A stretch of DNA of 64,000 nucleotides, from assembly GCA_021769965.1 (NCBI GenBank), contig JAETRU010000012.1, forward strand, positions 1,215 through 65,214, given 5' to 3'. The stretch is from Eubacterium sp. (GTDB taxonomy: Bacteria > Bacillota > Clostridia > Peptostreptococcales > Anaerovoracaceae). Positions 4,291 through 29,840 of the stretch are shown here, in pieces (position 1 is the first letter of the stretch; the number at the start of each line of letters is the position of its first letter). The translations under genes were made by a program, and so were the position numbers. The notes under the pieces are model-generated. The model was not told the DNA's origin and did not search any database. It was given only the letters and a program-made list of their open reading frames with translations.

Positions 4291-4299
4291 TAGATCAGA

Positions 4300-4327: not shown

Positions 4328-4351
4328 ATGTGTATAGCAACACATAAAAAG

Positions 4352-4568: not shown

Positions 4569-4589
4569 TTGTTTTTTGAGGAGGATGAA

Positions 4590-5774: not shown

Positions 5775-5778
5775 AAGG

Positions 5779-6486: not shown

Positions 6487-6487
6487 G

Positions 6488-7696
6488 ATGGGGAAAAGAG
6501 TATCTTTTTTATTTGGTTCAGGTGCGGATACTGCTGCATGCAAGAAGTTGAAATCAGGTGACTCTTTTGCTGAAGCGTTGCTATTGGGGAAATATAGAAA
6601 AGAAAGAAAAGAATTATTAGGTGAGGACTTTGCAGAATATCAACTTATATATCCACAGAGTAGCAAGGTCTTTATTCAAAGTATTGTTGAAAATAAAGAA
6701 GAAGCGCAAAAAATTTTCCCTGAAAAATTTGATATTTGTTATAATTATGCAACCCAAAAAGAGGAAATAGATTATAGTGGTGTGATAAGACCAATGTGCA
6801 AAGACTTTTATGATATTATCCATAGTGAAGAACAAGAAGAGACGAAAGACATCAGGAACTTCTTTTTGAAAAAAGCCGTTTTCTTTGATTCGCTAGATGA
6901 AAAATTCAACTCATTAAGGGATATTGAATTTAATAAAAATGGAAAAAGAGTTATTAATGCGTATGTTACTATTTTTATTCTCATGTTCAAAAGCCTTTAT
7001 GATATACCTGAAGAGTTTCAATGGACATATGAAAACATATTCAACGTATTGAAGAAAGACTACGATATTTTGTCCGATATAACAAATGAGAATTATTATA
7101 GTATTGTAAAGAACAGTGGAATTTCGTGTAAAATTATCACAACAAACTATACTGAATTATCGGAGAAGCTAACAGAAAAACCAGTAACATACTTGCATGG
7201 AAAACTGAATTGGTTTGAGGATTTAAAGAATTTAACTGTTTATGATTGTACGAATAAAGAGGAACTGAATAAGATGAAACCTCTTATTAAATCTTGCTGT
7301 TTAATACCGTTTATATTAATACCTAGCGGAATCAAGCCAATCATATGCAAAAGACAAATCAAAGAATTTTATAAAATGATTGAGAAATTGGATAATAGCA
7401 ATATTCTATGTGTCGTTGGATACCGATTTAATAGTGAGGATAATCACATAAATTCAATTATTGCTGAGTGGATTAGAGAACCTAATCATCAGCTATTTTA
7501 TTTCAATTTTAATGAAGATGTAAGTTTTTCAAGATTAAGATGGGCGGACTTGTTTTCGATAAAAGATATAGAATATCGTGACAATTATGAGATAAATTTT
7601 ATAAAAATCGAAGAAAAAATTGTAAATATCATTGTAAATGAGAGCAATAGTATAAAGGCATTTTCTACATTTATGAATCAACTTGAAAGGAGTTAA
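6488..7696 (+). CDS. SIR2-like (SIR2_2-type) protein, putative NADase, 402 aa
   Basis: FLFGSGAD, IITTNYT, YLHGKL, ILIPS, VVGYRFNSEDNHIN motifs in sirtuin order; very AT-rich. Confidence 0.75.
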   Translation: MGKRVSFLFGSGADTAACKKLKSGDSFAEALLLGKYRKERKELLGEDFAEYQLIYPQSSKVFIQSIVENKEEAQKIFPEKFDICYNYATQKEEIDYSGVIRPMCKDFYDIIHSEEQEETKDIRNFFLKKAVFFDSLDEKFNSLRDIEFNKNGKRVINAYVTIFILMFKSLYDIPEEFQWTYENIFNVLKKDYDILSDITNENYYSIVKNSGISCKIITTNYTELSEKLTEKPVTYLHGKLNWFEDLKNLTVYDCTNKEELNKMKPLIKSCCLIPFILIPSGIKPIICKRQIKEFYKMIEKLDNSNILCVVGYRFNSEDNHINSIIAEWIREPNHQLFYFNFNEDVSFSRLRWADLFSIKDIEYRDNYEINFIKIEEKIVNIIVNESNSIKAFSTFMNQLERS

Positions 7697-7703
7697 TCTA
7701 ATA

Positions 7704-10208
7704 ATGTCAATATTCAAATGCAAAATGTGCGGCGGTACACTGGAAATCACAAATAATGAAACTGTAGCAGTCTGTGAGTACTGCGGCACTAAGCAGACTT
7801 TACCAAAACTTGATGATGAAAAACGCGCTAATCTTTACGACCGTGCAAACCATTTCAGACGTAGTAACGAGTATGATAAAGCGATGGGAATTTATGAACA
7901 GATTCTTAACGAGGACAGCACGGATGCAGAAGCGTACTGGTCGCTGGTGCTTTGCCGCTATGGTATTGAGTATGTAGAAGATCCAGCTACTCACAAGCGC
8001 GTGCCGACAGTGAACCGTGCACAATATGCTTCTATTTTCACTGATGAAGACTATAAAGCGGCATTACAACATGCTGACGGATATCAGAGGGTAGTTTACG
8101 AAGAAGAAGCGCAGGCAATCGACAATATCCAGAAAGGTATTCTTGCTATATCACAGCGTGAAGAACCTTTTGACGTGTTTATTTGCTACAAAGAAACGGA
8201 CAATCAAGGACGGAGAACGCCTGACTCTGTGCTTGCCAACGACCTGTATCATCAGCTGACACAGGAGGGCTTTCGCGTATTCTTTGCGAGAATTACCTTG
8301 GAGGATAAGCTGGGTTCTGCATATGAGCCGTACATATTTGCAGCATTGAACTCCGCAAAGGTTATGGTTGTGCTTGGAACAAAGCCAGAGCATTTTCAGG
8401 CTGTATGGGTAAAAAATGAGTGGAGCAGATATCTTTCATTAATTAAGAATGATGCTAAGAAAATGCTGATTCCAGCTTACAAGGATATGGATCCATATGA
8501 TTTACCGGAAGAATTTTCTCATCTGCAAGCACAGGATATGTCCAAGCTTGGCTTTATGCAGGATTTGATTCGTGGAATTAAGAAAATTACGGCGTTAGAA
8601 AAACCAAAGACTACAGCAAAGGAAACCGTAGTCGTAAGCAGTGCCGCCGGCAATGCAGAATCGCTATTAAAGCGTGCCTTTATGTTTCTTGAAGATGGTG
8701 ATTTTGCAAGTGCAAACGAATACTGTGAGAAAGTGCTGGATTTAGATCCAGAAAATCCAAGAGGCTATCTGGGCAAACTGATGGCAGAGCAGAATGTCAG
8801 AACAAAAGAAGCCTTGAAAGATTGTAAAGAATCCTTTGAGGAAGCGAATAACTATCAGAAGGTGGTTCGCTTTGGTGATGCTGCTTTAGTTGCTGAACTA
8901 CAAGGATATGTTAAATATATCAATGACAGAAATGAACTGGATAGAAAGATGTTTGCTTATGATACTGCAAAATCTTTAATGGAAAGGGCTAAAAGTGAAA
9001 ATGATTTCAAAGAAGCTGCAGAAAAATTCCAGATAGCAGCAGGTTATGAGGACGCAGATAATTTGGCTGATGAATGTCTGGAAAAGGCAGAAATTGCAAG
9101 GAAAGATGCGATCTATGATGCCGCACAGATGCAGATGAAAAGAAATACAATTTCTGATTATGAGAAAGCAATAGAAGGATTTCAGAGTATTGTAGACTGG
9201 AAAGACTCAGAAGAACAGAAAGTTGTTTGTCAACAGGCGTTATCCAAACTTCAGGCTGAACGAGAGGTGAGGAGTAAGACAACTAAAAAATGGATTAAAA
9301 TATTAGTTCCTCTGGCAATTATATGTGCTGTTTTAGGAATTGTCGTAAAAACGATAATTATACCAGAAAGTCAATATAAAAACGCAATAAGTTTAATGGA
9401 GCAAAACCAATACGAAAAAGCAATTAAAGAGTTTGAAAAGCTTAATGGATACAAAGATAGTAGAAATAAAATCAGTGAAGCAGAAGAATTGTTTTTAGAA
9501 AACAAATACCAATATGCGGTTGAATTATATCAGAATAAAGAATTTGAAAAGGCCAGGAAAGAATTTGAACTGTTAGGCGATTATAAGAACTCTAAAGTTT
9601 TAATTAAGAAGTATTTAATGGAAAGTGGAGTGGATTACTCTAAAATAGGTGATTCCTATTATTTTGGATCTTATGAACAAGATAATGATAGGAGTAATGG
9701 CAAAGAGAAAATAGAGTGGCTTATTATTGAAAGAAATGATAACAAGGCATTATTAATTAGCAAGTATGTATTGGACTATAGAAAATATAATAGTGACGCT
9801 GTTGTTGTAAAGAGCCTCAACGATTACGATGAAACAACAGGAACAATGAGCTGGGAACAGTGTGATTTAAGAAGTTGGCTTAATAATGAGTTCCTAAAAA
9901 ATGCATTTACTTTAAAAGAAAGAAATCAAATACGAGATGATATTTTTATCCTATCATCGAATGAAGTTGAAAAATATTTCCCTTCGAGCGAACTTAGGGT
10001 TTGTGAGCCAACGGTTTATGTAAAGAAAAAAGGTGTTAAGACAAATTCTTATGGGAAATGCGATTGGTGGCTAATAGCTAGTGAGAGTATAGAATCTTCA
10101 TATAGATTATCTACATCAATTGTGTCTGGTGTTGGAGAAATTTCTAAAGCGGGTGTTGATTCACAAATTGGTGTTCGCCCAGCCATCTGGCTTGACCTTG
10201 CTAAATAA
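7704..10208 (+). CDS. Zn-ribbon/TPR/TIR/TPR/TM/DUF6273-like multidomain membrane protein, 834 aa
   Basis: CKMC..CEYC; TPR helices; TIR FDVFICYK...VWVKNEW with the conserved Glu; one TM (ILVPLAIICAVLGIVV); C-terminal IEW...LLISKY...W..CDLRSWLN...WWL...GVRPAIWLDL. Confidence 0.85.
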   Translation: MSIFKCKMCGGTLEITNNETVAVCEYCGTKQTLPKLDDEKRANLYDRANHFRRSNEYDKAMGIYEQILNEDSTDAEAYWSLVLCRYGIEYVEDPATHKRVPTVNRAQYASIFTDEDYKAALQHADGYQRVVYEEEAQAIDNIQKGILAISQREEPFDVFICYKETDNQGRRTPDSVLANDLYHQLTQEGFRVFFARITLEDKLGSAYEPYIFAALNSAKVMVVLGTKPEHFQAVWVKNEWSRYLSLIKNDAKKMLIPAYKDMDPYDLPEEFSHLQAQDMSKLGFMQDLIRGIKKITALEKPKTTAKETVVVSSAAGNAESLLKRAFMFLEDGDFASANEYCEKVLDLDPENPRGYLGKLMAEQNVRTKEALKDCKESFEEANNYQKVVRFGDAALVAELQGYVKYINDRNELDRKMFAYDTAKSLMERAKSENDFKEAAEKFQIAAGYEDADNLADECLEKAEIARKDAIYDAAQMQMKRNTISDYEKAIEGFQSIVDWKDSEEQKVVCQQALSKLQAEREVRSKTTKKWIKILVPLAIICAVLGIVVKTIIIPESQYKNAISLMEQNQYEKAIKEFEKLNGYKDSRNKISEAEELFLENKYQYAVELYQNKEFEKARKEFELLGDYKNSKVLIKKYLMESGVDYSKIGDSYYFGSYEQDNDRSNGKEKIEWLIIERNDNKALLISKYVLDYRKYNSDAVVVKSLNDYDETTGTMSWEQCDLRSWLNNEFLKNAFTLKERNQIRDDIFILSSNEVEKYFPSSELRVCEPTVYVKKKGVKTNSYGKCDWWLIASESIESSYRLSTSIVSGVGEISKAGVDSQIGVRPAIWLDLAK

Positions 10209-10266
10209 AAATAATTTCAATAAATTACGCTTACGGTATATTTGAAATTAACAAATAATTCATTAC

Positions 10267-10303
10267 AAATGGCACTATGCACTAGATTTGTATAGTGCCA
10301 TTT
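10267..10303 (+). terminator. stem-loop after the TIR gene (probable terminator and intron target)
   Basis: AAATGGCACTAT (10267-10278) / ATAGTGCCATTT (10292-10303) perfect 12-bp IR. Confidence 0.6.
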
Positions 10304-10309
10304 ATAGTG

Positions 10310-10420
10310 GAGTGCCGGGCATGACACAGTTCTAAGATGATCCTAAGCTCAGGTTGAGAGTCAGCACCACCAAAACAAAGGTCGTGAGACCTGCCAGGAG
10401 CAATTTCTTAGGTTTATCTT
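10310..10420 (+). pseudogene. group IIC intron relic (5' end plus reverse-transcriptase fragment)
   Basis: GAGTGCCGGGCATG resembles the IIC 5' end GTGTGCCCGGCATG, 6 nt after a stem-loop; frame from 10339 reads PKLRLRVSTTKTKVVRPARSNFLG, like RT domains 6-7. Confidence 0.55.
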
Positions 10421-16924: not shown

Positions 16925-17009
16925 GCGGCGTTTGGAAGGTATGCAAAAAAATCTTTCCATTTCGTGTTCACACCCGGTCATCGTTCGTAACCTGTGTAAA
17001 TTGGCTGTA

Positions 17010-17180
17010 TTTGGGCAGTTCTTCTGACTTAGACATCGGACGCCCTTATCTTGCCTTCCCGGTTTCCCAGTGACATTTATTAAGAAAGAGCTACGTCATT
17101 ACAGCGGCGTGACCGTGCAGGAGTTTCACCTGCTTCTCTTTTGACCCCCCCTCAAAAGGGACCCGTATACATTCAATTGT
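17010..17180 (-). ncRNA. cobalamin riboswitch 1 (cbiMNQO)
   Basis: Minus: AAAAGAGAAGCAGGTGAAACTCCTGCACGGTCACGCCGCTGTAA...CACTGGGAAACCGGGAAGG...AAGTCAGAAGAACTGCC. Confidence 0.92.
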
Positions 17181-17186
17181 AATTCA

Positions 17187-17216: not shown

Positions 17217-17324
17217 GCGGGGCAGACAGAGTTAAACGCAAAAATTTTCCTATACAAATGAAAGATTGTATGGTACAATGACCCATGTGAGCATTTGTAA
17301 CTCGAACAAATGAATGACTGAATT

Positions 17325-17497
17325 ACAACTGAATGATAAGTATTTCTTGTCTGTTTTTACAGCAAAGAGGGAAACAGGTGTAAATCCTGTGCGGTTGCCG
17401 CCGCTGTAAGGGAGAAGTCATGCCGGTATACCACTGGGCGTAAGGGTCTGGGAAGGTGCGCATGATGCAGATACCCGAGCCAGAAGACCTGCATGAA
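17325..17497 (+). ncRNA. cobalamin riboswitch 2 (repeat-protein gene and cbiK)
   Basis: AGAGGGAAACAGGTGTAAATCCTGTGCGGTTGCCGCCGCTGTAA...CACTGGG...GGGAAGG...GAGCCAGAAGACCTGC. Confidence 0.92.
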
Positions 17498-17556
17498 ATA
17501 CAGGAAGTTCCCTGACGGTTATCAGGCATCCTGAAAACAGATACAGAAAATACGGG

Positions 17557-17583
17557 CTGTAGCACATTGTGCTGCAGTTTTTT
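17557..17583 (+). terminator. leader terminator downstream of riboswitch 2
   Basis: CTGTAGCAC-ATT-GTGCTGCAG followed by T6. Confidence 0.7.
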
Positions 17584-17657
17584 ATATTCCGGAAAGTCTG
17601 CTGCTGAGGAGAATCGGCACATCCGGCTTTCTGATTATTTGCTGAGGTGAGATCAAA

Positions 17658-18689
17658 GTGGAAGTATTAGAGTTAGAGCAGAAGAAGAGATACCTGATAG
17701 AAAAAGTCAGCCGTAACTCCGATAAACGATATGGACAGGATGAAAAAACATCTGAAGTCTGGCAGGCTTACGCGATGGCAAGCCGGCAGGGGAAAAGTGT
17801 TTATCAAAGCTTTTCTGATGAAGAGCTGCTCGCTTATTTGAGAACTCTGGCCGGGGAACTGGGCCATGGGCCTGCACAGGCAGAGGTTTTCTGGGTATTG
17901 CGGGACTACATCAAACACAGGTTTGGCAAATGGCCTTATGCGCTGCGCGCAGCCGGACTTTCCGCGTCGGCAGGCAGAGGCGGGAAAACCATGGAGCAGA
18001 TGGAAAAGGAGAAACAGCACAAGGCATCCCTTCTTGCCGCAGTCAGGAAAAAAGCGATGGAGCTTGGCAAAATTCCGCATCCGGGAGACTTACCGGAGGT
18101 CTGTGAAGAGCTGAAAAAGTATTACAGCGGATGGACTTCTGTAATCAAGGCAGCAAAGCTGGATTCTGATTTTTTTAAGAAAGCGGTCCATAAGATCCCT
18201 GATCTGGAAACAGAATATGTGGATATGCTGGAAAAGGTAAAGAATTTTGCCTATGAAATAGGAAGAAGCCCTCTTCATGGAGAGATCGATCCGGCCGTGA
18301 AACAGGCGCTTATAGAAAGGTGCGGTTCCTGGCGCAACGCGCTGTATCAGATCGATCTGGAACCGGTACTGCGGATGGAGCCTTTTCATGACATTTACAT
18401 CGATCATAGAATGGCGGAAAACAGAAAGTGTCATTCTGACAGCCTCTACGGATGTTATTATAAAGTCCTGAATCTGGATGAAAGTGACAGAAAACGTCTT
18501 GCGAAGGTCAGAAACCGCTATCTGCGGGATGGGAAAATTCCGATGAAAAAAGAAGTACCCAAACAGCTCCGGCAGGATCTGCAGGAAAAATGCGGATCCT
18601 GGGGAAATGTACTGTATCAGATCGGCGTTACGCCGAAAGAGTATTATTTGGAAAAGCATAAAAAGAAAAACATTGTTCGTGAAAAGTGA
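17658..18689 (+). CDS. protein of four homing-endonuclease-associated-type helical repeats, no nuclease domain seen, 343 aa
   Basis: Repeats ending RFGKWPYALRAAGL, YYSGWTSVIKAAKL, RCGSWRNALYQIDL, KCGSWGNVLYQIGV, each preceded by a helix and G..P; GAGGTG RBS, GTG start. Confidence 0.75.
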   Translation: MEVLELEQKKRYLIEKVSRNSDKRYGQDEKTSEVWQAYAMASRQGKSVYQSFSDEELLAYLRTLAGELGHGPAQAEVFWVLRDYIKHRFGKWPYALRAAGLSASAGRGGKTMEQMEKEKQHKASLLAAVRKKAMELGKIPHPGDLPEVCEELKKYYSGWTSVIKAAKLDSDFFKKAVHKIPDLETEYVDMLEKVKNFAYEIGRSPLHGEIDPAVKQALIERCGSWRNALYQIDLEPVLRMEPFHDIYIDHRMAENRKCHSDSLYGCYYKVLNLDESDRKRLAKVRNRYLRDGKIPMKKEVPKQLRQDLQEKCGSWGNVLYQIGVTPKEYYLEKHKKKNIVREK

Positions 18690-18700
18690 GGAGAATTGTG

Positions 18701-19501
18701 ATGATGAAACAGAAACAGGATACTGCGATTTTGGTAGTAAGTTTTGGCACCAGCTACAACGACAACAGAAAAGTTACCATCGACGCCATTGAGCAGGCAA
18801 TTGCGGAGGCTTTTCCGGATTATCCGGTGCGGCGCGCTTTTACCAGTCAGATGATTATCAACAAACTGAAAAAAAGAGACGGACTTCATATTGATAACGA
18901 AGCAGAGTCCCTGCAGCATGCGGCGGCGGACGGTTTTAGAAAGCTGGCAGTACAGCCGACTCACCTGATGAACGGAACAGAGTACCACGATCTTCTGCGC
19001 GATGTCAAGGCACACAGCGACCTCTTTGACGCAGTCGTCATGGGAGAGCCTCTTTTAACAGATCCGGAGGATTTTGAACAGGTGGCTGCCGCCATGGCAG
19101 AAGACACGAAAGCGCTGACGGACGAAAAGACTGCTGTGGTGCTGATGGGACACGGAACTGGCGCAGAAGCGAACAGGGTATATTTTGACCTGCAGGATGA
19201 ACTGAAAAAACAGGGACATCACAACTACTTTATCGCTACCGTCGAGGCAGTGCCGACCTTAGAGGACATTCTTCCTGCTTTAAAAGCAGGCGGCTATGAA
19301 AAAATCGTTCTGCAGCCTCTGATGATCGTTGCCGGCGACCATGCCAACAACGATATGGCAAGTGATGATGAGGATTCATGGAAAACGATTCTGGAAAAGG
19401 AAGGCTACGAAGTGCAGTGCGTGCTTCGGGGCATGGGCCAGATCCCGGCAATCAGGAAGATCTTTGCCCGTCATGCAGAGCGCGCGGTAAAACAGCTTTG
19501 A
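18701..19501 (+). CDS. cbiK: sirohydrochlorin cobaltochelatase
   Basis: ILVVSFGTS, AFTS, LMGHGT, LMIVAGDHANNDM. Confidence 0.95.
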   Translation: MMKQKQDTAILVVSFGTSYNDNRKVTIDAIEQAIAEAFPDYPVRRAFTSQMIINKLKKRDGLHIDNEAESLQHAAADGFRKLAVQPTHLMNGTEYHDLLRDVKAHSDLFDAVVMGEPLLTDPEDFEQVAAAMAEDTKALTDEKTAVVLMGHGTGAEANRVYFDLQDELKKQGHHNYFIATVEAVPTLEDILPALKAGGYEKIVLQPLMIVAGDHANNDMASDDEDSWKTILEKEGYEVQCVLRGMGQIPAIRKIFARHAERAVKQL

Positions 19502-19531: not shown

Positions 19532-19560
19532 TTGACAGTGGAATACGATTGTAATATAAT
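19532..19560 (+). promoter_or_regulatory. consensus sigmaA promoter of the main cbi/hem operon
   Basis: TTGACA-17-TATAAT. Confidence 0.85.
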
Positions 19561-19574
19561 TTTGTTAAGCAACT

Positions 19575-19748
19575 TGAAAATATTGGTTGATAAAATCGTA
19601 ATATGGAATCAGGTGAGAGTCCTGAACAGTCCTGCTGCCGTAATGACGGAGCTTTTTTGCAAGGCGTACAGCCAGTCACTGGGAATGTTTCCCGGGAAGG
19701 CGCATAGAGAGCATTGACGTCAGAGTCGGAAGACATCCCAATATTTGA
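19575..19748 (+). ncRNA. cobalamin riboswitch 3 (cbiD operon)
   Basis: P1 AATATTGG (19579-19586)/CCAATATT (19738-19745); GGAATCAGGTGAGAGTCCTGAACAGTCCTGCTGCCGTAA...CACTGGGAA...GGGAAGG...GAGTCGGAAGAC. Confidence 0.9.
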
Positions 19749-19868
19749 CCGTGAAAGTCACAGGATATGAGTTTTAGGGTAATAGATTTAGTTGATCTTT
19801 CGACGAACAGATTCCCGGTAAGCAGAAGATGCCCGCTCGAAGAAATCAACTTTATAGAGCAGATATCT

Positions 19869-19945: not shown

Positions 19946-21118
19946 ATGGAGAAATTTACCGTCAAAAATGGAAAAAAACTAAAATATGGTTTTACGACCG
20001 GAAGCTGTGCTGCCGCGGCAGCTGCTTCGGCAGCGGCTATGCTTTTTTCGGGAGAAAAAATTTCAGAGGCGGAAATTATACTGCCGGCAGGTGAAAAAAT
20101 CACGCTGCAGGTCAGTAATATAGATATGCAGAAAAGTATCGTGCGCTGCGCCGTAATAAAAGACGGCGGTGATGATCCTGACGCGACCCACGGCGCGGAA
20201 ATCACCGCTGCTGTCAGCAGGAACCCTATTGATGCGGCTGTGCCGGCAGAAAGCAGAAACGGGATCACGCTCCTTGGAGGCAGCGGCGTTGGTATCGTTA
20301 CCGCGAGGGGGTTGCAGTGCTCTGTAGGCGAACCTGCCATCAACCCGGTGCCGCGGCGGATGATTTTTGAAAACGTAGAGCGGATGCGCGCAAAATTCGG
20401 AAAAACGGAAGAACCTCTGTATGTAGAAATCTCAGTGCCTTCAGGCGAGGAGACCGCGAAAAAAACATATAATCCGAGGCTGGGTATCGTCGGAGGCATC
20501 TCTATTCTCGGCACGACGGGAATTGTAGATCCGATGAGCGAGAAAGCCCTCGTGGATACCATCAAGATCGTAATTGACAAGCAGTATCAGGAAAATCCGA
20601 AGAGGATCCTGATCGCGCCGGGAAACTACGGCAGAGATTTCTGCAGAGATTATCTGGGTCTTGATGTGGAAAAGGCAGTACCTGTCTCCAATTACATTGG
20701 CGAAGCCCTGGATTATATAAAGTTTAAAGGCTTTGAGGAAATTCTGCTGGTAGGTCACACCGGAAAGCTGATCAAGCTGGCGGCGGGGATCATGAATACC
20801 CATTCTTCCTATGCAGACGGCAGAATGGAGATCATCGGCGTGCACAGCGCGATCTGCGGCGCAGACAGCGATACCGTAAAGGGCATAATGGAGTGCATTA
20901 CCACCGACGAAGCCTTCGGGCTGATTGAAACAAAACCCTATTATGAAGACGTGAAAGCGCGAATCCTGGAAAAGGTGCTGTATCATCTGCGCTTTCGTCT
21001 GAAAGAACAAGTGAAGATAGAAACAATTCTGTTTACCACAGACAGAAACCATATTATGAAAAGCGCCGGCGCGGACCGGCTTTCTGAAAAGATAAGAAAG
21101 GATATGAAACAAATATGA
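19946..21118 (+). CDS. cbiD: cobalt-precorrin-5B C1-methyltransferase
   Basis: LKYGFTTGSCAAAA, KDGGDDPDATHG, AINPVPR, GGISILGTTG. Confidence 0.95.
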   Translation: MEKFTVKNGKKLKYGFTTGSCAAAAAASAAAMLFSGEKISEAEIILPAGEKITLQVSNIDMQKSIVRCAVIKDGGDDPDATHGAEITAAVSRNPIDAAVPAESRNGITLLGGSGVGIVTARGLQCSVGEPAINPVPRRMIFENVERMRAKFGKTEEPLYVEISVPSGEETAKKTYNPRLGIVGGISILGTTGIVDPMSEKALVDTIKIVIDKQYQENPKRILIAPGNYGRDFCRDYLGLDVEKAVPVSNYIGEALDYIKFKGFEEILLVGHTGKLIKLAAGIMNTHSSYADGRMEIIGVHSAICGADSDTVKGIMECITTDEAFGLIETKPYYEDVKARILEKVLYHLRFRLKEQVKIETILFTTDRNHIMKSAGADRLSEKIRKDMKQI

Positions 21119-21801
21119 GCGGAAAATTTTATGCAGTGGGTGTGGGACCGGGAGACCCGCAGCTGCTTACAGTGAAAGCGATCAATGTGATGAAAGCCTG
21201 TCAGGTGATCGCAGTGCCGAAAAGCGGCGCGTCAGAAAATATTGCGCTGAAAATCGCCGGTGATTATATTCGCGGCAAAGAGATCCTGGAATGCGACATG
21301 CCTATGATCAAGGACAAAGAAGAACTGGAGCGGTATCACGAGCAGTCGGCGGATACGATTGCGGAAATTCTGACGCAGGGAAAAGACGTCGCTTTTCTGA
21401 CCCTGGGAGATCCTGCGATTTACAGCACGGTCATGTATGTACACAGAAAATTGACAGCGCGGGGTCATGAGACCGCTATGGTACCGGGCATCCCGTCTTT
21501 TTGCGGCGCGGCGGCAAGTCTGAACACGTCTCTGTGCGAGCGGGATGAAATGCTGCACGTGATTCCGGCAACCTATAAGGGCAGTCAGGCGGAAGTTCTG
21601 GACGGTACCAGAGTGCTGATGAAGTCAGGCAGAAGCATCATGCAGATCAAAGAGCAGCTGGCTGAGAAAAAAGCTATGATGGTAGAATGCGCCACCATGG
21701 AAAACGAAAAGGTCTATCATGATTTAAACGACCTGAAAGAACAGTCCAGTTATTTTTCGTTAATCGTAATTCCTTCAGAAGACAGACAAAAGGAGAGTTA
21801 A
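21115..21801 (+). CDS. cbiL: cobalt-precorrin-2 C20-methyltransferase
   Basis: GVGPGDPQLLT, FLTLGDP..YST. Confidence 0.9.
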   Translation: MSGKFYAVGVGPGDPQLLTVKAINVMKACQVIAVPKSGASENIALKIAGDYIRGKEILECDMPMIKDKEELERYHEQSADTIAEILTQGKDVAFLTLGDPAIYSTVMYVHRKLTARGHETAMVPGIPSFCGAAASLNTSLCERDEMLHVIPATYKGSQAEVLDGTRVLMKSGRSIMQIKEQLAEKKAMMVECATMENEKVYHDLNDLKEQSSYFSLIVIPSEDRQKES

Positions 21802-21804
21802 ACT

Positions 21805-22554
21805 ATGATCTATTTTATCGGAGCAGGACCGGGCGCGGCGGATCTGATTACGGTCAGAGGCGCGGAGCTTCTGAAAAAAGCAGATGTTATCATCTATGCG
21901 GGTTCTCTTGTGAATCCGGCGCTTCTGGACTACGCAAAAGAAACATGCAAGATTTATAACAGCGCGAAAATGACATTAGAAGAAGTCATCGATGTAATGA
22001 GAGAAAATCGCGGCAGGGAGGTCGTGAGACTTCACACGGGTGACCCCTGCATCTACGGCGCCATCAGAGAGCAGATGGATATTCTGGACCGGGAGCAGAT
22101 GGAATATGTTTCGGTACCGGGCGTCAGCTCCTTTATCGGCGCTGCCGCAGCGCTGAACGCAGAGTACACTCTGCCGAATGTGAGCCAGACCGTGATTCTG
22201 ACAAGAATGGCAGGAAGAACGCCGGTGCCTGAAAAGGAAGAGATTTCCAAACTGGCGGCCCACGGCGCGACCATGGTCGTTTTCCTGACTTCCACGATGC
22301 TGGAGGAGCTGTCTGAACGGCTCATCGCAGGCGGCTATGAACCGGACAGTCCGGCAGCCATCGTCTATAAAGCGACCTGGCCGGATGAAAAGGTAATTCG
22401 CACTACTGTGAAAGATATCGCGAAAGCCGCGGAAGAAAACGGCATCAATAAGATGGCACTGATTATGGTAGGTGGTTTTTTGGGCAGTGAATATGAGCGT
22501 TCCAAACTCTATGATCCATCCTTTACCCACCTGTTTCGAGAGGCAACGAAATAA
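21805..22554 (+). CDS. cbiF: cobalt-precorrin-4 C11-methyltransferase
   Basis: FIGAGPGAADLITVRG, RLHTGDP, SQTVILTR. Confidence 0.93.
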   Translation: MIYFIGAGPGAADLITVRGAELLKKADVIIYAGSLVNPALLDYAKETCKIYNSAKMTLEEVIDVMRENRGREVVRLHTGDPCIYGAIREQMDILDREQMEYVSVPGVSSFIGAAAALNAEYTLPNVSQTVILTRMAGRTPVPEKEEISKLAAHGATMVVFLTSTMLEELSERLIAGGYEPDSPAAIVYKATWPDEKVIRTTVKDIAKAAEENGINKMALIMVGGFLGSEYERSKLYDPSFTHLFREATK

Positions 22555-23567
22555 TGAAGAACATCGGTATTGTGGCCTTTACGGCAAGAGGCTGTCATCT
22601 GGCGCAAAAAATCGCAGGAAAAATCGCAGCAGATCTGCAGAATGCTTACAGCGTAGAGCTGTTTGAAAAAGAAAAAGAAGGCGCCAGAGAATATCTGGAA
22701 AGAAATTTCAATAAAAAAGACACCTTCCTTTTTATCTGCGCTGCGGGAATCGCGGTCCGTCTCATCGCGCCGCTGATCAAATCCAAAGACCAGGATCCCG
22801 CGGTGGTAGTCATGGATGAGTTCGGCAGATTTTCTGTTCCGCTGCTTTCCGGCCACCTGGGCGGCGCAAACGAAGCCGCGGCTGAATTCGCGAAGATGAC
22901 AGACGCGCAGCTGGTACTGACCACAGCCACCGATATCAACGGACAGTTTGCGGTGGATGTCTGGAGCAAATACGCAGGCTGTCACATCATGGACATCAGT
23001 AAGATCAAACTGGTTTCATCAGCCGTGCTGCGGGGAGAAAAGGTCGGCATTTCCAGCGGGTTTCCGTTTGAAGGGGATATGCCGGGCGCTCTGACCCTGG
23101 ACGATGTGGAAACCGGCATCTGCGTCAGTCTGGCAGGAAACCAGAAGACTTATGAGAATACCCTCAATCTGGTGCCCCGCATTGTGACAGTGGGCGCAGG
23201 CTGCAGAAAAGGCGTCAGCGCGGAAGTCTTTGAAAAATTCATTCTGAAGCAGCTGGCAATGAAAAATATCGCAATTGAGGCGGTAGAACAGGTTGCTTCC
23301 ATTGAACTGAAAAAATATGAGCCATGTATACTGGCTTTCTGTGACAAATACAAAATTCCTTTTGTCACTTTCACTGCCGAAGAGCTGCAGCGCGTGGAAG
23401 GCGACTTTCCGTCATCGGACTTAGTGAAAACAGTCACCGGTACGGATAATGTCTGCGAGCGCAGCGCAGTGCTGGCGAGCAGTTACGGAACAAGAATATT
23501 ATCGAAGACCAGCGGAAGCGGGTGTACCTGCGCCCTGGCTATGAGAGATTGGAAGTGTAAATTTTGA
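22554..23567 (+). CDS. cbiG: cobalt-precorrin-5A hydrolase
   Basis: AAGIAVR, KDQDPAVVV, LSGHLGGAN, VGAGCRKG, VCERSA. Confidence 0.93.
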   Translation: MKNIGIVAFTARGCHLAQKIAGKIAADLQNAYSVELFEKEKEGAREYLERNFNKKDTFLFICAAGIAVRLIAPLIKSKDQDPAVVVMDEFGRFSVPLLSGHLGGANEAAAEFAKMTDAQLVLTTATDINGQFAVDVWSKYAGCHIMDISKIKLVSSAVLRGEKVGISSGFPFEGDMPGALTLDDVETGICVSLAGNQKTYENTLNLVPRIVTVGAGCRKGVSAEVFEKFILKQLAMKNIAIEAVEQVASIELKKYEPCILAFCDKYKIPFVTFTAEELQRVEGDFPSSDLVKTVTGTDNVCERSAVLASSYGTRILSKTSGSGCTCALAMRDWKCKF

Positions 23568-24568
23568 ATATCATCATGTCATATATCGACTATAACATGG
23601 CGGGACTGGGAGAGAGAGAAGTATTCTCCTGCACCAAAACGCAGACTGCGGACATTTATGACAAGCTGAAAGCAAAGAAAGAAATACTGGGCGCGGTGCT
23701 GATCGCCACCTGCAACAGGACAGAGCTTTACCTTTCTCTTGCAGAAGGAGCGAGCCTGAATCCTTTCAGAGAGCTTTGCGCGGCGATCAATGTGGATTAT
23801 GATGCTTATGCGCATATGAACAGAACGATAGCGGGAGATGAGGCAATCGTTCATCTCTGCAAAGTCGCTTCAGGCGCGGAGTCTCAGATCTGGGGAGATG
23901 ATCAGATCGTGACACAGGTGGATGACGCTGTAAAAGCCGCACAGAAGGCAGGGGCTACGGATACGTATCTCAATGTGATTTTCCGAAATGGCGTCAGCGC
24001 CGGTAAAAAGGTGAAGACGCTGGTGGATTTTAAGGTGGATGATAATTCTACCGCTTCAAGGGCAGTCAGACTGATTCGTACCAACCCGGCGATCCACAAG
24101 GTGCTTGTCATCGGAAACGGGATGATCGGCCGTCTGGTAGCGGAGCTTCTGGCAAAAGAAGGACTCTCGCCGATGATGACCCTGCGTCAGTACAGACATG
24201 GGGAAAATATTATCCCAAAAGGCGTGGAAACGGTGAACTACGGCAGCCGCTACGAGGCCATCGCCAAGGCAGACGCAGTAGTCAGCGCGACTCTGAGTCC
24301 CCATTACACAGTGACTTATGAAGAAGTCAGCCGCATGGAAAGGATTCCGGAGGTTTTCATCGATCTGGCAGTGCCGAGAGATATCGATCCGAAAGTCGAG
24401 GAGATCTCCCATGTGCGCTATTACGATATCGACACCCTTGGCAGAGATGTAAGAGATGCCAAGCAGGAAGAACAGATGCAGGAGATCGAAGCGATCATTG
24501 ATAAATATATGGACGACTTCCACAAATGGCTCAGCTTTCGGGAGCGTCTTTTGAAAGAGGAAAACTAA
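23564..24568 (+). CDS. hemA: glutamyl-tRNA reductase (short form, 334 aa)
   Basis: ATCNRTELY catalytic motif, ESQIWGDDQIVTQV, VIGNGMIG, DLAVPRDID. Confidence 0.88.
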   Translation: MNIIMSYIDYNMAGLGEREVFSCTKTQTADIYDKLKAKKEILGAVLIATCNRTELYLSLAEGASLNPFRELCAAINVDYDAYAHMNRTIAGDEAIVHLCKVASGAESQIWGDDQIVTQVDDAVKAAQKAGATDTYLNVIFRNGVSAGKKVKTLVDFKVDDNSTASRAVRLIRTNPAIHKVLVIGNGMIGRLVAELLAKEGLSPMMTLRQYRHGENIIPKGVETVNYGSRYEAIAKADAVVSATLSPHYTVTYEEVSRMERIPEVFIDLAVPRDIDPKVEEISHVRYYDIDTLGRDVRDAKQEEQMQEIEAIIDKYMDDFHKWLSFRERLLKEEN

Positions 24569-25300
24569 ATGAAAATATATGTAGTAGGGATCGGTCCCGG
24601 AAATAAAGAATATATGACGCCGCAGGCAGAAGCTGCCATCAGAGAGAGCGACGTCGTGGTAGGCTACACACTGTATGTGGATCTGGTAAAAGATCTGACC
24701 GCTGGAAAAGAAATCAAATCAACCGCGATGAAACAGGAAGTGGATCGCTGCAAGCTGGCACTGGAATCTGCTCTTTCCGGAAAGACAGTTGCCTTTGTCT
24801 GCAGCGGCGACGCCGGCGTTTACGGCATGGCAGGGGTCATGGCAGAAGTAGCGGAGGAACATCCGGAAGTGGAGATCGTCACTGTGCCCGGCATTACAGC
24901 GGCATGCAGCGGCGCGGCAGTTCTGGGAGCGCCGCTGATCCACGACTTTGCGGTCATTTCCCTGTCTGACCTTCTGACGCCGTGGGAAAAGATCGAAAAG
25001 AGACTGCGCCTTGCGGCGGAAGCGGATTTTGTAGTCTGCATGTACAATCCGAAGAGCAAGAAGCGTCATGACTATATTGATAAAGCAGCCGAGATTATGA
25101 GCTGCGCCAAAGCATGGGATACGCCATGCGGCTATGTGAAAAATATCGGCAGAGACGGCGAAACCGCAGTAGTCTGCACTCTGGCTGATTTAAAGAACAA
25201 CGAAGATATCGACATGTTTACGACCGTTTTTGTGGGAAACAGTCAGACGAAAATCATCAACGGAAAGCTGGTAACTCCTCGTGGATACAAAGGCGTGTAA
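24569..25300 (+). CDS. cbiH: cobalt-precorrin-3B C17-methyltransferase
   Basis: VVGIGPG, SGDAGVYGMAG, ISLSDLLTPW, TPRGY. Confidence 0.95.
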   Translation: MKIYVVGIGPGNKEYMTPQAEAAIRESDVVVGYTLYVDLVKDLTAGKEIKSTAMKQEVDRCKLALESALSGKTVAFVCSGDAGVYGMAGVMAEVAEEHPEVEIVTVPGITAACSGAAVLGAPLIHDFAVISLSDLLTPWEKIEKRLRLAAEADFVVCMYNPKSKKRHDYIDKAAEIMSCAKAWDTPCGYVKNIGRDGETAVVCTLADLKNNEDIDMFTTVFVGNSQTKIINGKLVTPRGYKGV

Positions 25301-26066
25301 GAAAAAGAGGATTCTGGTCTTTGCCGGTACGAAGGAAGGACATCAGCTGGCAAAGGCATTCGAGGAGAAGGGATTTTTGCCCTTTGCTGATTTCTGCGTC
25401 GCCACAGAATATGGCAGCGAAGTGCTCTCCGATATCCCAGGTCTTTCTGTGATGGAGGGAAGGCTTACCCTTTCCGATATGAAGAAGCTTTTAGGAGATA
25501 AACCATACGGCCTGGTAATTGACGCGACGCATCCTTACGCTGCCGTCGTCACGGGAAATATCAGAAAGGCCTGCGAAAGCCGGACCATACCTTATGTAAG
25601 GCTTCTCCGGGATGCGGGAAGTACAGAATATGACGGCATTACGGCGGTTGCGTCCATCGAAGAGGCAGTAGAACTTCTGAATCGGTGCGACGATAAGGTC
25701 CTTTTGACGACCGGCGCCAAAGAGCTTGGAAAGTATAAGGGAATTAAAAATCTGAAGGAACGTGTGGCCGCCAGAGTCCTGCCAAGTCCTGCGTCGCTGG
25801 AAAGCTGCAGGGAGGCAGGAATCGCGCCAAAGCATATTATCGCCATGCAGGGACCTTTTACTGAAAAGATGAATCTGGCGATGATGGAGCAGTACGGATG
25901 CACGATTCTTGTGACAAAGAATACAGGTAAGGCCGGCGGGTTTGATGATAAGGTGGCATGCCTGCGCGCGGGATACCGGCTGATCGTTATCGGCAGACCT
26001 GCTGAGGAGACGGGTTTTAGCCTCGAAGAAGTGATGAGGAAAGTGGTGGCGTTTTATGCAGAATAG
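25281..26066 (+). CDS. cbiJ: cobalt-precorrin-6A reductase (start uncertain)
   Basis: ILVFAGTKEG, IDATHPYA, IAMQGPF, LVTKNTG. Confidence 0.92.
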   Translation: MDTKACKKKRILVFAGTKEGHQLAKAFEEKGFLPFADFCVATEYGSEVLSDIPGLSVMEGRLTLSDMKKLLGDKPYGLVIDATHPYAAVVTGNIRKACESRTIPYVRLLRDAGSTEYDGITAVASIEEAVELLNRCDDKVLLTTGAKELGKYKGIKNLKERVAARVLPSPASLESCREAGIAPKHIIAMQGPFTEKMNLAMMEQYGCTILVTKNTGKAGGFDDKVACLRAGYRLIVIGRPAEETGFSLEEVMRKVVAFYAE

Positions 26067-26520
26067 ATATTTTCCGATATTTGTACCTTCTGCGGAGAAA
26101 ACAGTGGTCGTCATCGGCGGAGGCAATATCGCTTCCAGAAGAATCAGGACCCTGATGGAATTTGACTTTCAGGTAACAGTGGCTGCGCCATGGGTTTCCG
26201 ATGAGGTGAAAGCGCTTTCCGAAGCGGGTAAACTGAAATGGATAGAGAAACCTTATGAAAAGCAGGTCATTGCGGACGCTTTCATGGTTCTCGCCTGTAC
26301 CGATGACAGAGAGACCAACAGAAGAATCGGTCTTGACGCAAAAGCCGCCGGCATTTTAGTCAGTGTCTGCGACAGCAGAGCAGAGTGCACGTTCTATTTT
26401 CCTGCCATTGCGGCGGGAGAGGAAGTGACCTGCGGCATTGTGGGAAGCGGCAAAGATCATCACGTAACCCGCAGGGCAGCGAAAAAAGTAAGAGAAATCA
26501 TAAAAGGAAAGGCGTACTGA
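26056..26520 (+). CDS. sirC: precorrin-2 dehydrogenase / sirohydrochlorin ferrochelatase family (SirC/CysG N-terminal)
   Basis: VVVIGGGNIASRR, LACTDD...N. Confidence 0.8.
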   Translation: MQNRYFPIFVPSAEKTVVVIGGGNIASRRIRTLMEFDFQVTVAAPWVSDEVKALSEAGKLKWIEKPYEKQVIADAFMVLACTDDRETNRRIGLDAKAAGILVSVCDSRAECTFYFPAIAAGEEVTCGIVGSGKDHHVTRRAAKKVREIIKGKAY

Positions 26521-27395
26521 TGAAAGTAATAGTAGGAAGCCGGGAAAGCAAACTGGCGGTGATCCAGTCAGAGATGGTAATTGACGCCATCAGAGAATTT
26601 GACAGTAACATAGATGTCAGCCTGATTACCATGAAGACTACAGGCGACATGATTTTAGATAAAACCCTTGATCAGATCGGCGGAAAAGGGCTTTTCGTCA
26701 AGGAGCTGGATAAGGCGCTCCTTGACCATCGGGCAGATCTGACAGTGCACAGCCTGAAAGATATGCCGATGGAAGTTTCAGAGGAGCTTCCGCTTCTGGC
26801 ATTTTCAAAGAGAGAAGATCCCAGAGACGCGCTGGTTCTTCGGGCGGGAATTTCAGAACTTCCCAAAAATCCGGTCATCGGCTGTTCTTCGAAGAGAAGA
26901 ACGCTGCAGGCGCAGAAACTGTACCCGGACGCAGTGATCAAACCAATTCGGGGCAATGTACAGACCAGACTCAGAAAACTGGACGAAGGCCAGTTTGACG
27001 CGATCATTCTGGCTTATGCGGGCCTGAAAAGACTGAATCTTGAGCCGCGGGTCAGTAAGCTGTTTTCGACTGAAGAAATTCTGCCCGCAGCCTGCCAGGG
27101 AATTCTGGCAGTACAGGGAAGAGCAGGCTATCAGGTGTCTTTCCTGAAAGATTTTGCCGATGAAGAGACAAAGCTGATCGCGCTGGCGGAAAGAAGCTTC
27201 GTGCGGACGCTGGACGGCGGCTGCAGTTCACCGGTTGCGGCTTACGCCGTGATAGACGGCGAAAGTATCACGATCACTGGTTTTTATGTAGATGAAAAAG
27301 AAAACCAGTACATAGATGCAGTTACCGGCAGCAAATATGAGGGAGAAGCTTTGGGAAGACAGCTGGCGCTGGCAATGAAAGGAGGCAGATCATGA
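26520..27395 (+). CDS. hemC: hydroxymethylbilane synthase
   Basis: GSRESKLA, GGKGLFVKE, VHSLKDMP, LDGGCSSPV. Confidence 0.96.
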   Translation: MKVIVGSRESKLAVIQSEMVIDAIREFDSNIDVSLITMKTTGDMILDKTLDQIGGKGLFVKELDKALLDHRADLTVHSLKDMPMEVSEELPLLAFSKREDPRDALVLRAGISELPKNPVIGCSSKRRTLQAQKLYPDAVIKPIRGNVQTRLRKLDEGQFDAIILAYAGLKRLNLEPRVSKLFSTEEILPAACQGILAVQGRAGYQVSFLKDFADEETKLIALAERSFVRTLDGGCSSPVAAYAVIDGESITITGFYVDEKENQYIDAVTGSKYEGEALGRQLALAMKGGRS

Positions 27396-28870
27396 GCAGA
27401 GGTAAGGTATATTTAGTGGGAGCAGGTCCCGGAGACAAGGATCTGCTGACTGTAAAGGCGGTCAGACTTATCGGTGAAGCCGACGTCATCGTCTATGACC
27501 GGCTGGTCAGCGAAAGCATCATGGATCTGATCCCTGATGGCGCGAAGCTGATCGATGTAGGCAAAAATGTCGGAAACCATCCGGTGCCCCAGCATGAGAT
27601 CAACAGAATTTTGCTGAGAGAGGCTGAGGCAGGAAATATGGTCGTACGCCTGAAGGGCGGTGACCCTTTCGTCTTTGGAAGAGGCGGTGAGGAACTGGAG
27701 CTGCTGTCTGAGAACGGGATACCTTTTGAAGTCGTTCCGGGCATTACGTCTTCCATTTCTGTGCCGGCATACGCGGGAATTCCTGTGACCCACAGAGATT
27801 TCTGCTCATCCCTGCATATTATCACAGGCCACGCGAAGGCGGGCGCAGAGCTTGATATTGATTTTGAGGCCCTGGTAAGACTGAAGGGAACACTGATCTT
27901 CATGATGAGCGTATCTACTGTCGGGCGCATTGCGAAAGGCCTGATGGAAGCAGGTATGGAGCAGGATATGCCATGCGCTGTCATTGAAAACGGGACTTAT
28001 CCGAAGCAGAGAAAGTTTATTTCGGATCTTGCGCATATAGAGGAAACGACAGCAGTAAATCATGTGAAATCTCCTGCAGTGATTGCAGTGGGAAAGGTCT
28101 GCAGTCTGTCCGATCGATTTGACTGGTTCAGCAGAAAACCTCTGAAGGGTAAACGTGTTCTGGTAACTCAGCCTCAAAGCAAGGCATCAAAACTGGAACA
28201 GAAACTGCGGAATCTGGGCGCGGATACGAAGTTATATCCATGTATCCGAACTGACTTTATCAGACCGATGGATCCTCCTTTTGAGGATTACGATACGCTG
28301 GTGTTTACCAGTACCGAGGGTGTTCGTTCTTTCTTCAGATGGCTGATGGAAGACGGCAGGGATGTTCGTGCGGCAGCTGGCAAACGTTTTGCCTGCATCG
28401 GCACAGCGACTGCGAAGGCCCTGGAAGAGTTCGGGCTGAAAGCCGACTTTATTCCGTCTGCTTTTTACGGAGAAACCCTGGGCAAGGAAATGGTATCAAC
28501 AGGATTTGTTACACCTGACAGTAAAGTGATCCTGCTTCGCGCAAAGATTGGAACCGCGGATCTGACCGATGCGCTGGATGCAGGAAACATTGCCTATCTG
28601 GATTATCCTGTTTACAATACAGATTATGTAGAACACGAGGAAATCGAAAACCTGGATGCATGGGATTATGTGACTTTTACCAGCAAATCCTGTGTAAACG
28701 GATTTGTGAATACACAGAAGCGAAAGGATTTTTCCGGCGTAAAAGCCCTCTGTATCGGTACGCAGACCGCATCTGAAGCGGCAAAGTTCGGATTTGACAC
28801 AGTGATTTCAGATATAGCGACCATCGACAGTATGGTAGAAAAAGTAAGGAGTGATTGCAATGATAACTAG
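27392..28870 (+). CDS. cobA-hemD: uroporphyrinogen-III C-methyltransferase / uroporphyrinogen-III synthase fusion
   Basis: LVGAGPGD, RLKGGDPFVFGRGGEE; C-terminal HemD (VFTSTEGV, TFTSKS). Confidence 0.93.
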   Translation: MSRGKVYLVGAGPGDKDLLTVKAVRLIGEADVIVYDRLVSESIMDLIPDGAKLIDVGKNVGNHPVPQHEINRILLREAEAGNMVVRLKGGDPFVFGRGGEELELLSENGIPFEVVPGITSSISVPAYAGIPVTHRDFCSSLHIITGHAKAGAELDIDFEALVRLKGTLIFMMSVSTVGRIAKGLMEAGMEQDMPCAVIENGTYPKQRKFISDLAHIEETTAVNHVKSPAVIAVGKVCSLSDRFDWFSRKPLKGKRVLVTQPQSKASKLEQKLRNLGADTKLYPCIRTDFIRPMDPPFEDYDTLVFTSTEGVRSFFRWLMEDGRDVRAAAGKRFACIGTATAKALEEFGLKADFIPSAFYGETLGKEMVSTGFVTPDSKVILLRAKIGTADLTDALDAGNIAYLDYPVYNTDYVEHEEIENLDAWDYVTFTSKSCVNGFVNTQKRKDFSGVKALCIGTQTASEAAKFGFDTVISDIATIDSMVEKVRSDCNDN

Positions 28871-29840
28871 ACCTAGAAGACTGAGAGCCAATCCGCTGAT
28901 TCGCGGCATGGTAAGAGAAACAAGAGCATCCGCAGACAGCCTGATCTATCCTGTTTTCTTTGAGGAAGGCAGCAATATCAAGGCGCCAATTGCAGCTATG
29001 GACGGACAGTTCCGCTACAGCCCTGACCGGGCGAAGGAGATCGCCGACCAGTGTCTGGAGCACGGCGTAAACAAGCTGCTTCTCTTCGGCATTCCGAAGG
29101 AAAAGGACGAAAAGGGCAGCCAGGCTTATGCGGAAAACGGCATCGTGCAGCAGGCCGTGCGCGCGCTGAAAAAAGAGTACGGCGATCAGCTTTATGTCAT
29201 TACCGATGTATGCATGTGCGAATATACGTCTCATGGTCACTGCGGCATTCTCTGCGGTCACGATGTAGATAACGATGAGACTTTGCAGTATCTTTCAAAG
29301 ATCGCGGTTTCCCATGCTGCAGCTGGCGCGGATATGGTCGCGCCGTCGGATATGATGGACGGTCATATTGCGGCTCTGCGGGGAGGTCTTGACGAAAACG
29401 GATTTAAGAATACGCCGATCATGAGCTATGCTGTAAAATACGCGTCCAAGTTCTATGGTCCGTTCAGAGACGCGGCGGGCAGCGCACCGTCTTTTGGCGA
29501 CAGAAAGACTTACCAGATGGATCCTCATAATCTGAGAGAGGGCATGAAAGAAGCCGCCATTGATGAGGAAGAGGGCGCAGACATTCTCATGGTAAAACCG
29601 GCGCTTTCCTATTTAGATGTGATCAGAGAGCTTTCCTATAACACGAATCTTCCGATTGCAACTTACAGTGTCAGCGGCGAATACGCCATGATCAAAAACG
29701 CCGGAAAAGCTGGACTCATCGATGAGTACGGCATCATGTGCGAAACAGCTGCATCCATGTACAGAGCGGGTGCGGACATCATCATGACTTATTACGCCAT
29801 GGAGATCGCAGACGCTATCAGAAAAGGAGATATCGGATAA
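28860..29840 (+). CDS. hemB: porphobilinogen synthase
   Basis: RPRRLR, DVCMCEYTSHGHCG, APSDMMDG, MVKPA. Confidence 0.96.
   Translation: MITRPRRLRANPLIRGMVRETRASADSLIYPVFFEEGSNIKAPIAAMDGQFRYSPDRAKEIADQCLEHGVNKLLLFGIPKEKDEKGSQAYAENGIVQQAVRALKKEYGDQLYVITDVCMCEYTSHGHCGILCGHDVDNDETLQYLSKIAVSHAAAGADMVAPSDMMDGHIAALRGGLDENGFKNTPIMSYAVKYASKFYGPFRDAAGSAPSFGDRKTYQMDPHNLREGMKEAAIDEEEGADILMVKPALSYLDVIRELSYNTNLPIATYSVSGEYAMIKNAGKAGLIDEYGIMCETAASMYRAGADIIMTYYAMEIADAIRKGDIG

Follow-up and report, generated by a model that had tools for sequence, protein, structure and literature searches.

The NUMOD-type modules of I-TevI and I-HmuI are small helical modules arranged in series beside a nuclease and are thought to read extended DNA sites. 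Regulatory RNAs that are controlled by a B12 (cobalamin) riboswitch and act on known regulators are represented by AspocR/PocR of Listeria and EutX of Enterococcus. The genes of cobalamin-riboswitch regulons have been grouped into biosynthesis, cobalt transport, B12 transport and B12-independent isozymes (PMC3766115). Here we describe a gene located at nt 17658–18689 of a 64,000-nt stretch of Eubacterium sp. (contig JAETRU010000012.1; the whole stretch is hereafter called the window), which codes for a protein built of four PF18780 repeats and follows a cobalamin riboswitch. Its family fits none of the four regulon classes, yet it stands first after the riboswitch in dozens of gut species. The PF18780 repeat was already known, and its conserved B12-regulon setting is new. 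No experimental activity for PF18780 was found in the literature, which consists of a single repeat-modelling paper where the family is an entry in a structure-modelling table, and no description of the present family was found in the cobalamin-regulon literature.

To place the gene in its family, one genome per GTDB species was scanned; 72 loci were returned and, after dropping one fragment, 71 were usable. Carriers belong to Anaerovoracaceae (Emergencia, Senimuribacter, Ihubacter and Anaerovorax), Lachnospiraceae (Blautia, Anaerocolumna, Fusicatenibacter and Lacrimispora) and Oscillospiraceae (Flavonifractor, Intestinimonas and Lawsonibacter), with further members in Clostridium collagenovorans and Alkalibacter. 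Riboswitches were screened by an nhmmer profile made from 15 Rfam-verified aptamers, which regained all Rfam matches in 11 independently scanned loci and whose negatives were confirmed with Rfam in 12 more. A same-strand cobalamin riboswitch was found directly upstream in 51 of the 71 loci, ending 120–860 nt before the homolog. In a published survey of 197 genomes 535 cobalamin riboswitches were recorded, or about 2.7 for each genome (PMC3766115); a gene picked at random would come first behind such an element in far less than 1% of cases. We hold it as highly probable that the repeat gene belongs to the cobalamin-riboswitch regulon of Clostridia.

The initial annotation had coupled the gene to cbiK and suggested to check whether its orthologs stay linked to both cbiK and a riboswitch or occur in random contexts. 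Their contexts are not random and the link with the riboswitch held, whereas cbiK follows in 4 of 71 loci only, this coupling being confined to a young Anaerovoracaceae clade (the window and loci L001–L004); elsewhere the genes downstream are mostly cobalt or corrinoid transporters (about 43/71). Based on neighbour clustering and Pfam annotation, the downstream contexts were assigned as follows.

Energy-coupling factor (ECF)-type importers (CbiQ-like T component, fused ATPase, S component, often DUF4430): 15 loci
Nik/Opp-type ATP-binding cassette (ABC) importers: 16–17 loci
BtuFCD-type importers: 7 loci
CbiMNQO: 5 loci
cbiK: 4 loci and the window
AP_endonuc_2 genes, CbiR-like: 3 loci
LRR_5 / phosphoribosyltransferase genes: 3 loci

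CbiR of the AP_endonuc_2 type is a demonstrated cobamide-remodelling enzyme (PMC7733943). Three Anaerovorax homologs without a riboswitch (L029, L031 and L032) directly follow the gene for NrdJ, the B12-dependent ribonucleotide reductase, an adjacency that ties the repeat family to a B12-using enzyme and not to B12 acquisition. In some genomes the gene is present as two or three paralogs that belong to separate operons. Measured over 40 loci, the distance to the next start preceded by a ribosome binding site (RBS) has a median of 19 nt, and in ECF-type loci the genes overlap by 4–32 nt; gene calls made independently on metagenome contigs agree with the ECF arrangement, the repeat gene and ecfT overlapping there by 11 nt. 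From these arrangements the repeat gene is predicted to be the first cistron of its operon, with a tight or translational coupling to the gene that follows. In three loci of the BtuFCD/LRR type (L040, L041 and L046) a conserved 98-aa open reading frame (ORF) with no Pfam match lies between the riboswitch and the repeat gene, and a DUF2325 gene is found just upstream of the riboswitch. A molybdenum-cofactor riboswitch (L027, nt 10226–10345) and a thiamine pyrophosphate riboswitch (L064, nt 10199–10297), each a few kb downstream of a homolog, are probably unrelated.

The gene of the window and the parts of its product are listed below, all on the forward strand.

17644..17649: RBS GAGGTG of the repeat-protein gene, with the GTG start 8 nt further on (GAGGAG in loci L001–L003)
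17658..18689: coding sequence of the four-repeat PF18780 protein, GTG start and TGA stop, an ORF of 343 aa
17814..17960: repeat 1 (aa 53–101), with a conserved basic face formed by R82, K86, R88 and K91
18018..18164: repeat 2 (aa 121–169), with a near-invariant P140-H141-P motif
18210..18359: repeat 3 (aa 185–234), with the motif RCGSWRNALYQI
18360..18479: family-specific linker (aa 235–274), in which F243 and H259 are invariant, C266 and Y268 nearly so
18480..18629: repeat 4 (aa 275–324), with the motif KCGSWGNVLYQI

Both the GTG start and the RBS are kept in the orthologs L001–L004. A Pfam profile scan matched PF18780 (HNH_repeat; repeat unit of ~50–54 aa) in four stretches, with an E value of 6.4e-37 and 126.1 bits against a cutoff of 26. 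This is the match with the homing endonuclease associated repeat that had been predicted, and the four ~50-aa repeats described at that time were recovered as tandem units aligning as a long helix, G-x-x-P and [FYC]-[GS]-[KGS]-W-x-x-[AV]-[LI]-x-x-[AI]-x-[LV]. Also the reported lack of an HNH or GIY-YIG motif was borne out, Pfam giving no HNH, GIY-YIG or LAGLIDADG match in the 343-aa protein even at E ≤ 1. Searches against NCBIfam and PADLOC returned zero matches, and a nuclease or defence role was rejected on these three empty results. Judging from the sequence, it is very likely that the protein has no nuclease domain. No similarity to CobW, to a B12-binding domain or to transcobalamin-like proteins was found in Pfam, NCBIfam, the PDB sequences or the Foldseek structure search. 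The host-like codon style noted for the gene is reflected in a correlation with the other genes of the window that ranks 23rd of 48 and in a GC content of 47.1%, compared to 47.9% in the window, where no paralog of the gene was found.

Expression of the gene is predicted from its leader, the elements of which are given here, on the forward strand, together with those of the cbiK junction.

17251..17279: promoter-like site of riboswitch 2 (TATACA, 17-nt spacer, TACAAT, TG extension)
17330..17510: cobalamin aptamer RF00174, here riboswitch 2 (Rfam 112.1 bits, E 2.8e-27, full model 1–189)
17511..17526: hairpin CCUGA-CGGUUA-UCAGG after the aptamer, from the centroid fold and leader comparison
17554..17586: intrinsic terminator, made of a 12-bp stem (hairpin 17554–17580) and a U-run (z = -3.6)
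18688..18693: RBS GAGGAG of cbiK, overlapping the stop of the repeat gene
18701..19501: cbiK, sirohydrochlorin cobaltochelatase, second gene of a bicistronic unit (PF06180, E 1.5e-85)

As initially described, the repeat gene is the first one after riboswitch 2: no gene lies between the aptamer and its ORF, which are on the same strand, and no promoter-like site was found between the terminator and the GTG start. With an aptamer and an intrinsic terminator upstream, synthesis of the repeat protein is predicted, by known riboswitch logic, to be restricted to conditions of B12 scarcity. Sequencing runs containing the locus are DNA metagenomes only, with no RNA run among them. The promoter pattern T(A/G)TACAAA / TG-n-TAnAAT is kept upstream of the homologous riboswitches of L001–L004, L010, L013 and L061. 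Across 10 loci the hairpin loop CGGTTA is invariant while its stem covaries (CCTGA/TCAGG, GCCGA/TCGGC, TTCGA/TCGAA and ATCAA/TTGAT), and by comparison with published cobalamin riboswitch structures this hairpin probably represents the kissing-loop element P13/L13. Like the terminator sequence, this L13-like hairpin is common to cbiK-type and ECF-type leaders. At the other end of the gene the stop was correctly said to abut the RBS of cbiK: the TGA (nt 18687–18689) sits within GTGAGGAG, the RBS region of cbiK, and the ATG of the latter is at nt 18701. The cbiK product matched NF047852 with an E value of 2.2e-77, under the equivalog cutoff. A 99-aa ORF antisense to riboswitch 2 (nt 17323–17622, reverse strand) is almost certainly no gene.

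At the family level, at least 120 full-length homologs were found and all of them, among the matches listed, carry PF18780 only, with no nuclease domain. Searched exhaustively with a profile of the family, 1.84 billion cluster representatives yielded 1,883 matches with E ≤ 0.001, including 108 with E ≤ 1e-30; of these, about 25–30 are full-length, single-stretch proteins of ~320–360 aa, the others being larger repeat arrays. Homologs are named in databases either "hypothetical protein" or "homing endonuclease associated repeat-containing protein". In the alignment of 96 members 19 columns are invariant, some of them beyond the repeat units: G45 belongs to the N-terminal segment, and F243 and H259 to the linker that separates repeats 3 and 4. 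Invariant or near-invariant are further the His and Cys residues H141, H259, C222, C266 and C312 and the Asn and Gln residues N227, Q231, N317 and Q321. The family members are basic proteins, with medians of 9.1 for pI and +9 for net charge, and share conserved clusters of Arg and Lys; conservation extends over the full length down to ~40% identity in three families. The ratio of nonsynonymous to synonymous substitution rates (dN/dS), 0.06–0.10 versus the closest orthologs, indicates that the family is under strong purifying selection.

In the neighbour-joining tree of the proteins, the cbiK-linked members form a young clade nested within ECF-linked Anaerovoracaceae proteins, and the other clades track taxonomy and operon type. 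The Anaerovoracaceae riboswitches that precede the repeat gene form a single clade which mirrors the protein tree; the riboswitches of cbiMNQO and cbiD in these genomes fall outside it. These mirrored trees, with the common hairpin and terminator, indicate that riboswitch and repeat gene spread and duplicated together as one module, the link with cbiK appearing as a recent, local placement of it. A phage origin was rejected, since tblastn against 50,697 phage records was empty and the sole PHROG match is an unannotated family. The protein is described as cytoplasmic, basic, all-helical, nuclease-free and vertically inherited; it is neither a homing endonuclease nor specific to cobalt chelation.

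An AlphaFold2 model, calculated with the family alignment as input, is all-helical, with a predicted local distance difference test (pLDDT) score of 92.8 and a predicted template modelling score (pTM) of 0.79. In each of the four modelled repeats a long helix precedes two short helices, and the linker (aa 235–274) is the least confident region (pLDDT 65–70). Foldseek searches of the full model gave nothing at E ≤ 0.001 against either PDB (best E 0.15, sigma-70 chains) or BFVD (best E 0.12, helicase-associated-domain proteins), and neither did a sub-model of repeats 1–2 (aa 50–172) against PDB (best E 3, DsrC family). The top-ranked, non-significant matches include sigma factors, LexA, MntR, TetR, recombinases and helicase-associated domains. 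A profile search of the PDB sequences found no relative, with one chance match at E 0.05. The partner of DsrC is a sirohaem enzyme. The local matches with DsrC (7syb, 1yx3 and 2xsj_C) have E values of 3–6.5 and a root-mean-square deviation of ~4 Å over 63–73 columns, and are likewise non-significant; 2xsj_C is the entry listed for PF18780 (PMC8078820).

To see with which domains the repeat is combined, 18 multi-repeat relatives were scanned. Thirteen consist of repeats only (up to 22 copies), one carries an HNH domain (P0233), two the ResIII/Helicase_C domains of superfamily 2 (SF2) helicases (P0216 and P0218) and two a helix-hairpin-helix (HhH) domain, HHH_5 (P0222 and P0242); fusion with a metal, cofactor or transport domain was found in none of the 18. 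The earlier statement that such repeats normally accompany homing endonucleases stands for the single HNH relative and not for the rest. At L076 (nt 3833–9942) two giant PF18780 arrays of 583 aa and 1313 aa (22 repeats), with no other domain, lie adjacent to each other and are flanked by two-component systems and ABC transporters. The HNH, helicase and HhH fusions, as the best available evidence, point to a PF18780 unit that works with nucleic acids.

On these grounds we tentatively propose that the repeat protein is a B12-limitation-induced, nucleic-acid-binding accessory or regulatory factor. Our confidence in this proposal, which stays short of even, concerns the mechanism alone and neither regulon membership nor the absence of a nuclease. 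The four-repeat array would bind nucleic acid, as the arrays linked to HNH, SF2 helicase and HhH domains presumably do, and the protein would act as an effector of B12 starvation, either through a DNA binding that adjusts transcription of B12-related genes or by binding its own leader or mRNA and so tuning the output of the riboswitch-controlled operon. Nucleic-acid binding is suggested because related arrays are fused to those domains; together with the basic charge and the helical three-helix units, the fusions make a DNA- or RNA-binding regulatory or accessory role plausible. Several results weigh against it. Pfam identified no DNA- or RNA-binding family beyond PF18780 itself, and none of the helix-turn-helix type, and PF18780 has no experimentally demonstrated activity in the literature. 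The structural matches are all non-significant (best E 0.12–3, TM ≤ 0.41), and a visual comparison of leaders and promoters revealed no conserved candidate operator beyond the promoters, the aptamer, the L13-like hairpin and the terminator. The riboswitch is missing in 20 of the 71 loci. The paralogs, at most three per genome, head each a different uptake operon to which they are translationally coupled, a pattern that suits a subunit or an adaptor no less than a regulator. Finally, the high pTM points to one rigid body, while homing-endonuclease DNA-binding modules are typically arranged as beads on a string.

The main and serious rival is indeed a cargo-handling or protein-binding adaptor, in which the rigid array would attach to importers of cobalt or corrinoids on their cytoplasmic side, and to CbiK, CbiR and NrdJ, in order to accept, retain or pass on Co2+ or a corrinoid; the fold that binds nucleic acid elsewhere might here recognise the cobamide nucleotide loop or the adenosyl group. 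We consider this possible, though rather doubtful. It would account for a first cistron that overlaps or abuts transporter genes of four unrelated architectures as well as genes of B12 enzymes, for paralog clades that track operon type, for the three riboswitch-less homologs directly after the adenosylcobalamin-dependent NrdJ and for a model that looks like a single defined body. The conserved H141, H259, C222, C266, C312, N227, Q231, N317 and Q321 could ligate a metal or a corrinoid, but the Cys of repeats 3 and 4 occupy the position of a core Phe/Tyr in repeats 1 and 2 and may be structural. A precedent exists in CbiR, a member of the AP endonuclease 2 superfamily recruited to cobamide chemistry (PMC7733943), yet the fusion partners of the PF18780 repeat elsewhere are all nucleic-acid enzymes and similarity to known B12, cobalt or metallochaperone families was not found. 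Moreover, the partner systems carry unlike cargoes, Co2+ on one side and corrinoids on the other, and the transporter operons already have full sets of components.

A special case of nucleic-acid binding is that the protein acts in cis on the RNA, i.e. on the leader or nascent mRNA of its own operon, by termination feedback, mRNA stabilisation or processive antitermination. The inheritance and duplication of riboswitch and gene as a unit, with matching phylogenies within Anaerovoracaceae that stand apart from the other riboswitches of the same genomes, would be in accordance with such a partnership, as would the constant first-cistron position, the one paralog per operon and the basic charge; a simple tandem duplication, however, explains the co-inheritance without any interaction. 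In addition, the 20 homologs that have no riboswitch and the lack of an extra conserved RNA element besides aptamer, L13-like hairpin and terminator speak against it and, to our knowledge, cobalamin riboswitches function protein-free in every studied case, so that we judge this alternative unlikely. Equally improbable in our opinion is the broader idea that riboswitch and repeat protein are a co-evolving two-part regulatory module, with the protein binding its own leader or chromosomal sites. Lastly, the gene might be a degenerate selfish element, a nuclease-less remnant of a homing endonuclease hitch-hiking behind riboswitch DNA with no role in B12 metabolism. The name of the repeat family, the one relative with HNH, the occurrence of the gene at several riboswitch-proximal sites in one genome and the fact that related operons work without the repeat gene could be so explained. 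Nevertheless, the dN/dS of 0.06–0.10, the conservation over the full length to ~40% identity in three families with invariant residues outside the repeats, the clades that follow taxonomy and operon type, the host-like codon usage and GC, the zero nuclease domains among the matches listed (at least 120 homologs) and the lack of a phage homolog make it very improbable: neither a selfish, sporadic spread with relaxed constraint nor a foreign composition was found.

Rfam detected three cobalamin riboswitches within the window, the two others being the following.

16997–17181, reverse strand: riboswitch 1, serving the divergent cbiMNQO operon
19567–19756, forward strand: riboswitch 3, serving cbiD and the remaining genes of a complete anaerobic cbi/hem cluster

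The promoters of riboswitch 3 (nt 19532–19560, forward strand) and riboswitch 1 (nt 17216–17187, reverse strand) match the sigma-70 consensus at 12/12 positions (TTGACA-17/18-TATAAT). Riboswitch 2 has a weaker, TG-extended promoter (9/12), whose -35-like box T(A/G)TACAAA is kept in related loci. Behind riboswitch 3, nt 19946–38311 hold the complete anaerobic cobalamin and tetrapyrrole cluster, which codes for CbiD, three TP_methylases, CbiG, HemA, CbiJ, HemC, CobA-HemD and HemL, followed by CbiET-like, CbiA, CbiB, CobD, CbiP, CobO/BtuR and CbiC, and is directly followed by SpoIVA (nt 38265–39881). In other loci (L073–L075, nt 2634–7484, and L077–L078) genes for surface-type proteins of 1616–1882 aa (Big_3, FIVAR, DUF4430, fn3) were observed behind separate cobalamin riboswitches and beside ECF B12 importers, possibly serving cell-surface corrinoid capture in Gram-positive gut bacteria.

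Taken together, the repeat protein probably fills a missing accessory or regulatory role in the response to B12 starvation in dozens of gut species of Anaerovoracaceae, Lachnospiraceae and Oscillospiraceae, where four importer types are found downstream of it. Cobalt and corrinoids shape competition in the gut, and the activity of the protein could reveal an unrecognised step by which gut Firmicutes sense, import or allocate them. It would also give a first functional handle on PF18780, the family profile being matched by at least 1,883 cluster representatives. If the two-part module were true, gut Clostridia would respond to B12 starvation through an as yet undescribed level of control exerted by a protein, or would have a cobalamin riboswitch that is assisted by one.

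As regards known systems, the family shares with the PF18780 arrays of HNH endonucleases, SF2 helicases and repeat-only giants the tandem three-helix units of ~50 aa. It differs from them in having exactly four copies, a conserved N-terminal segment, a linker and no catalytic domain, and in forming a compact, confidently predicted body in a B12-riboswitch context, whereas the other arrays have 5–22 copies and unrelated contexts. Serial small helical modules are likewise found in the NUMOD-type proteins, a likeness by description in which sequence relationship was not compared; here they lack a nuclease and appear rigidly packed (pTM 0.79). Similarly to the repeat genes, those of CbiR and of DUF4430/transcobalamin-like proteins are non-pathway genes located behind B12 riboswitches near uptake or salvage genes (PMC7733943), and CbiR-like and DUF4430 genes even share operons with homologs of the repeat protein. 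Their products, however, have enzyme or ligand-binding folds, with a demonstrated activity in the case of CbiR, while none is recognisable in the repeat family. As for AspocR/PocR and EutX, the B12 riboswitch governs a product other than a pathway enzyme or a transporter but, unlike the AspocR and EutX RNAs, this product is a protein, predicted to be co-translated with uptake or biosynthesis genes.

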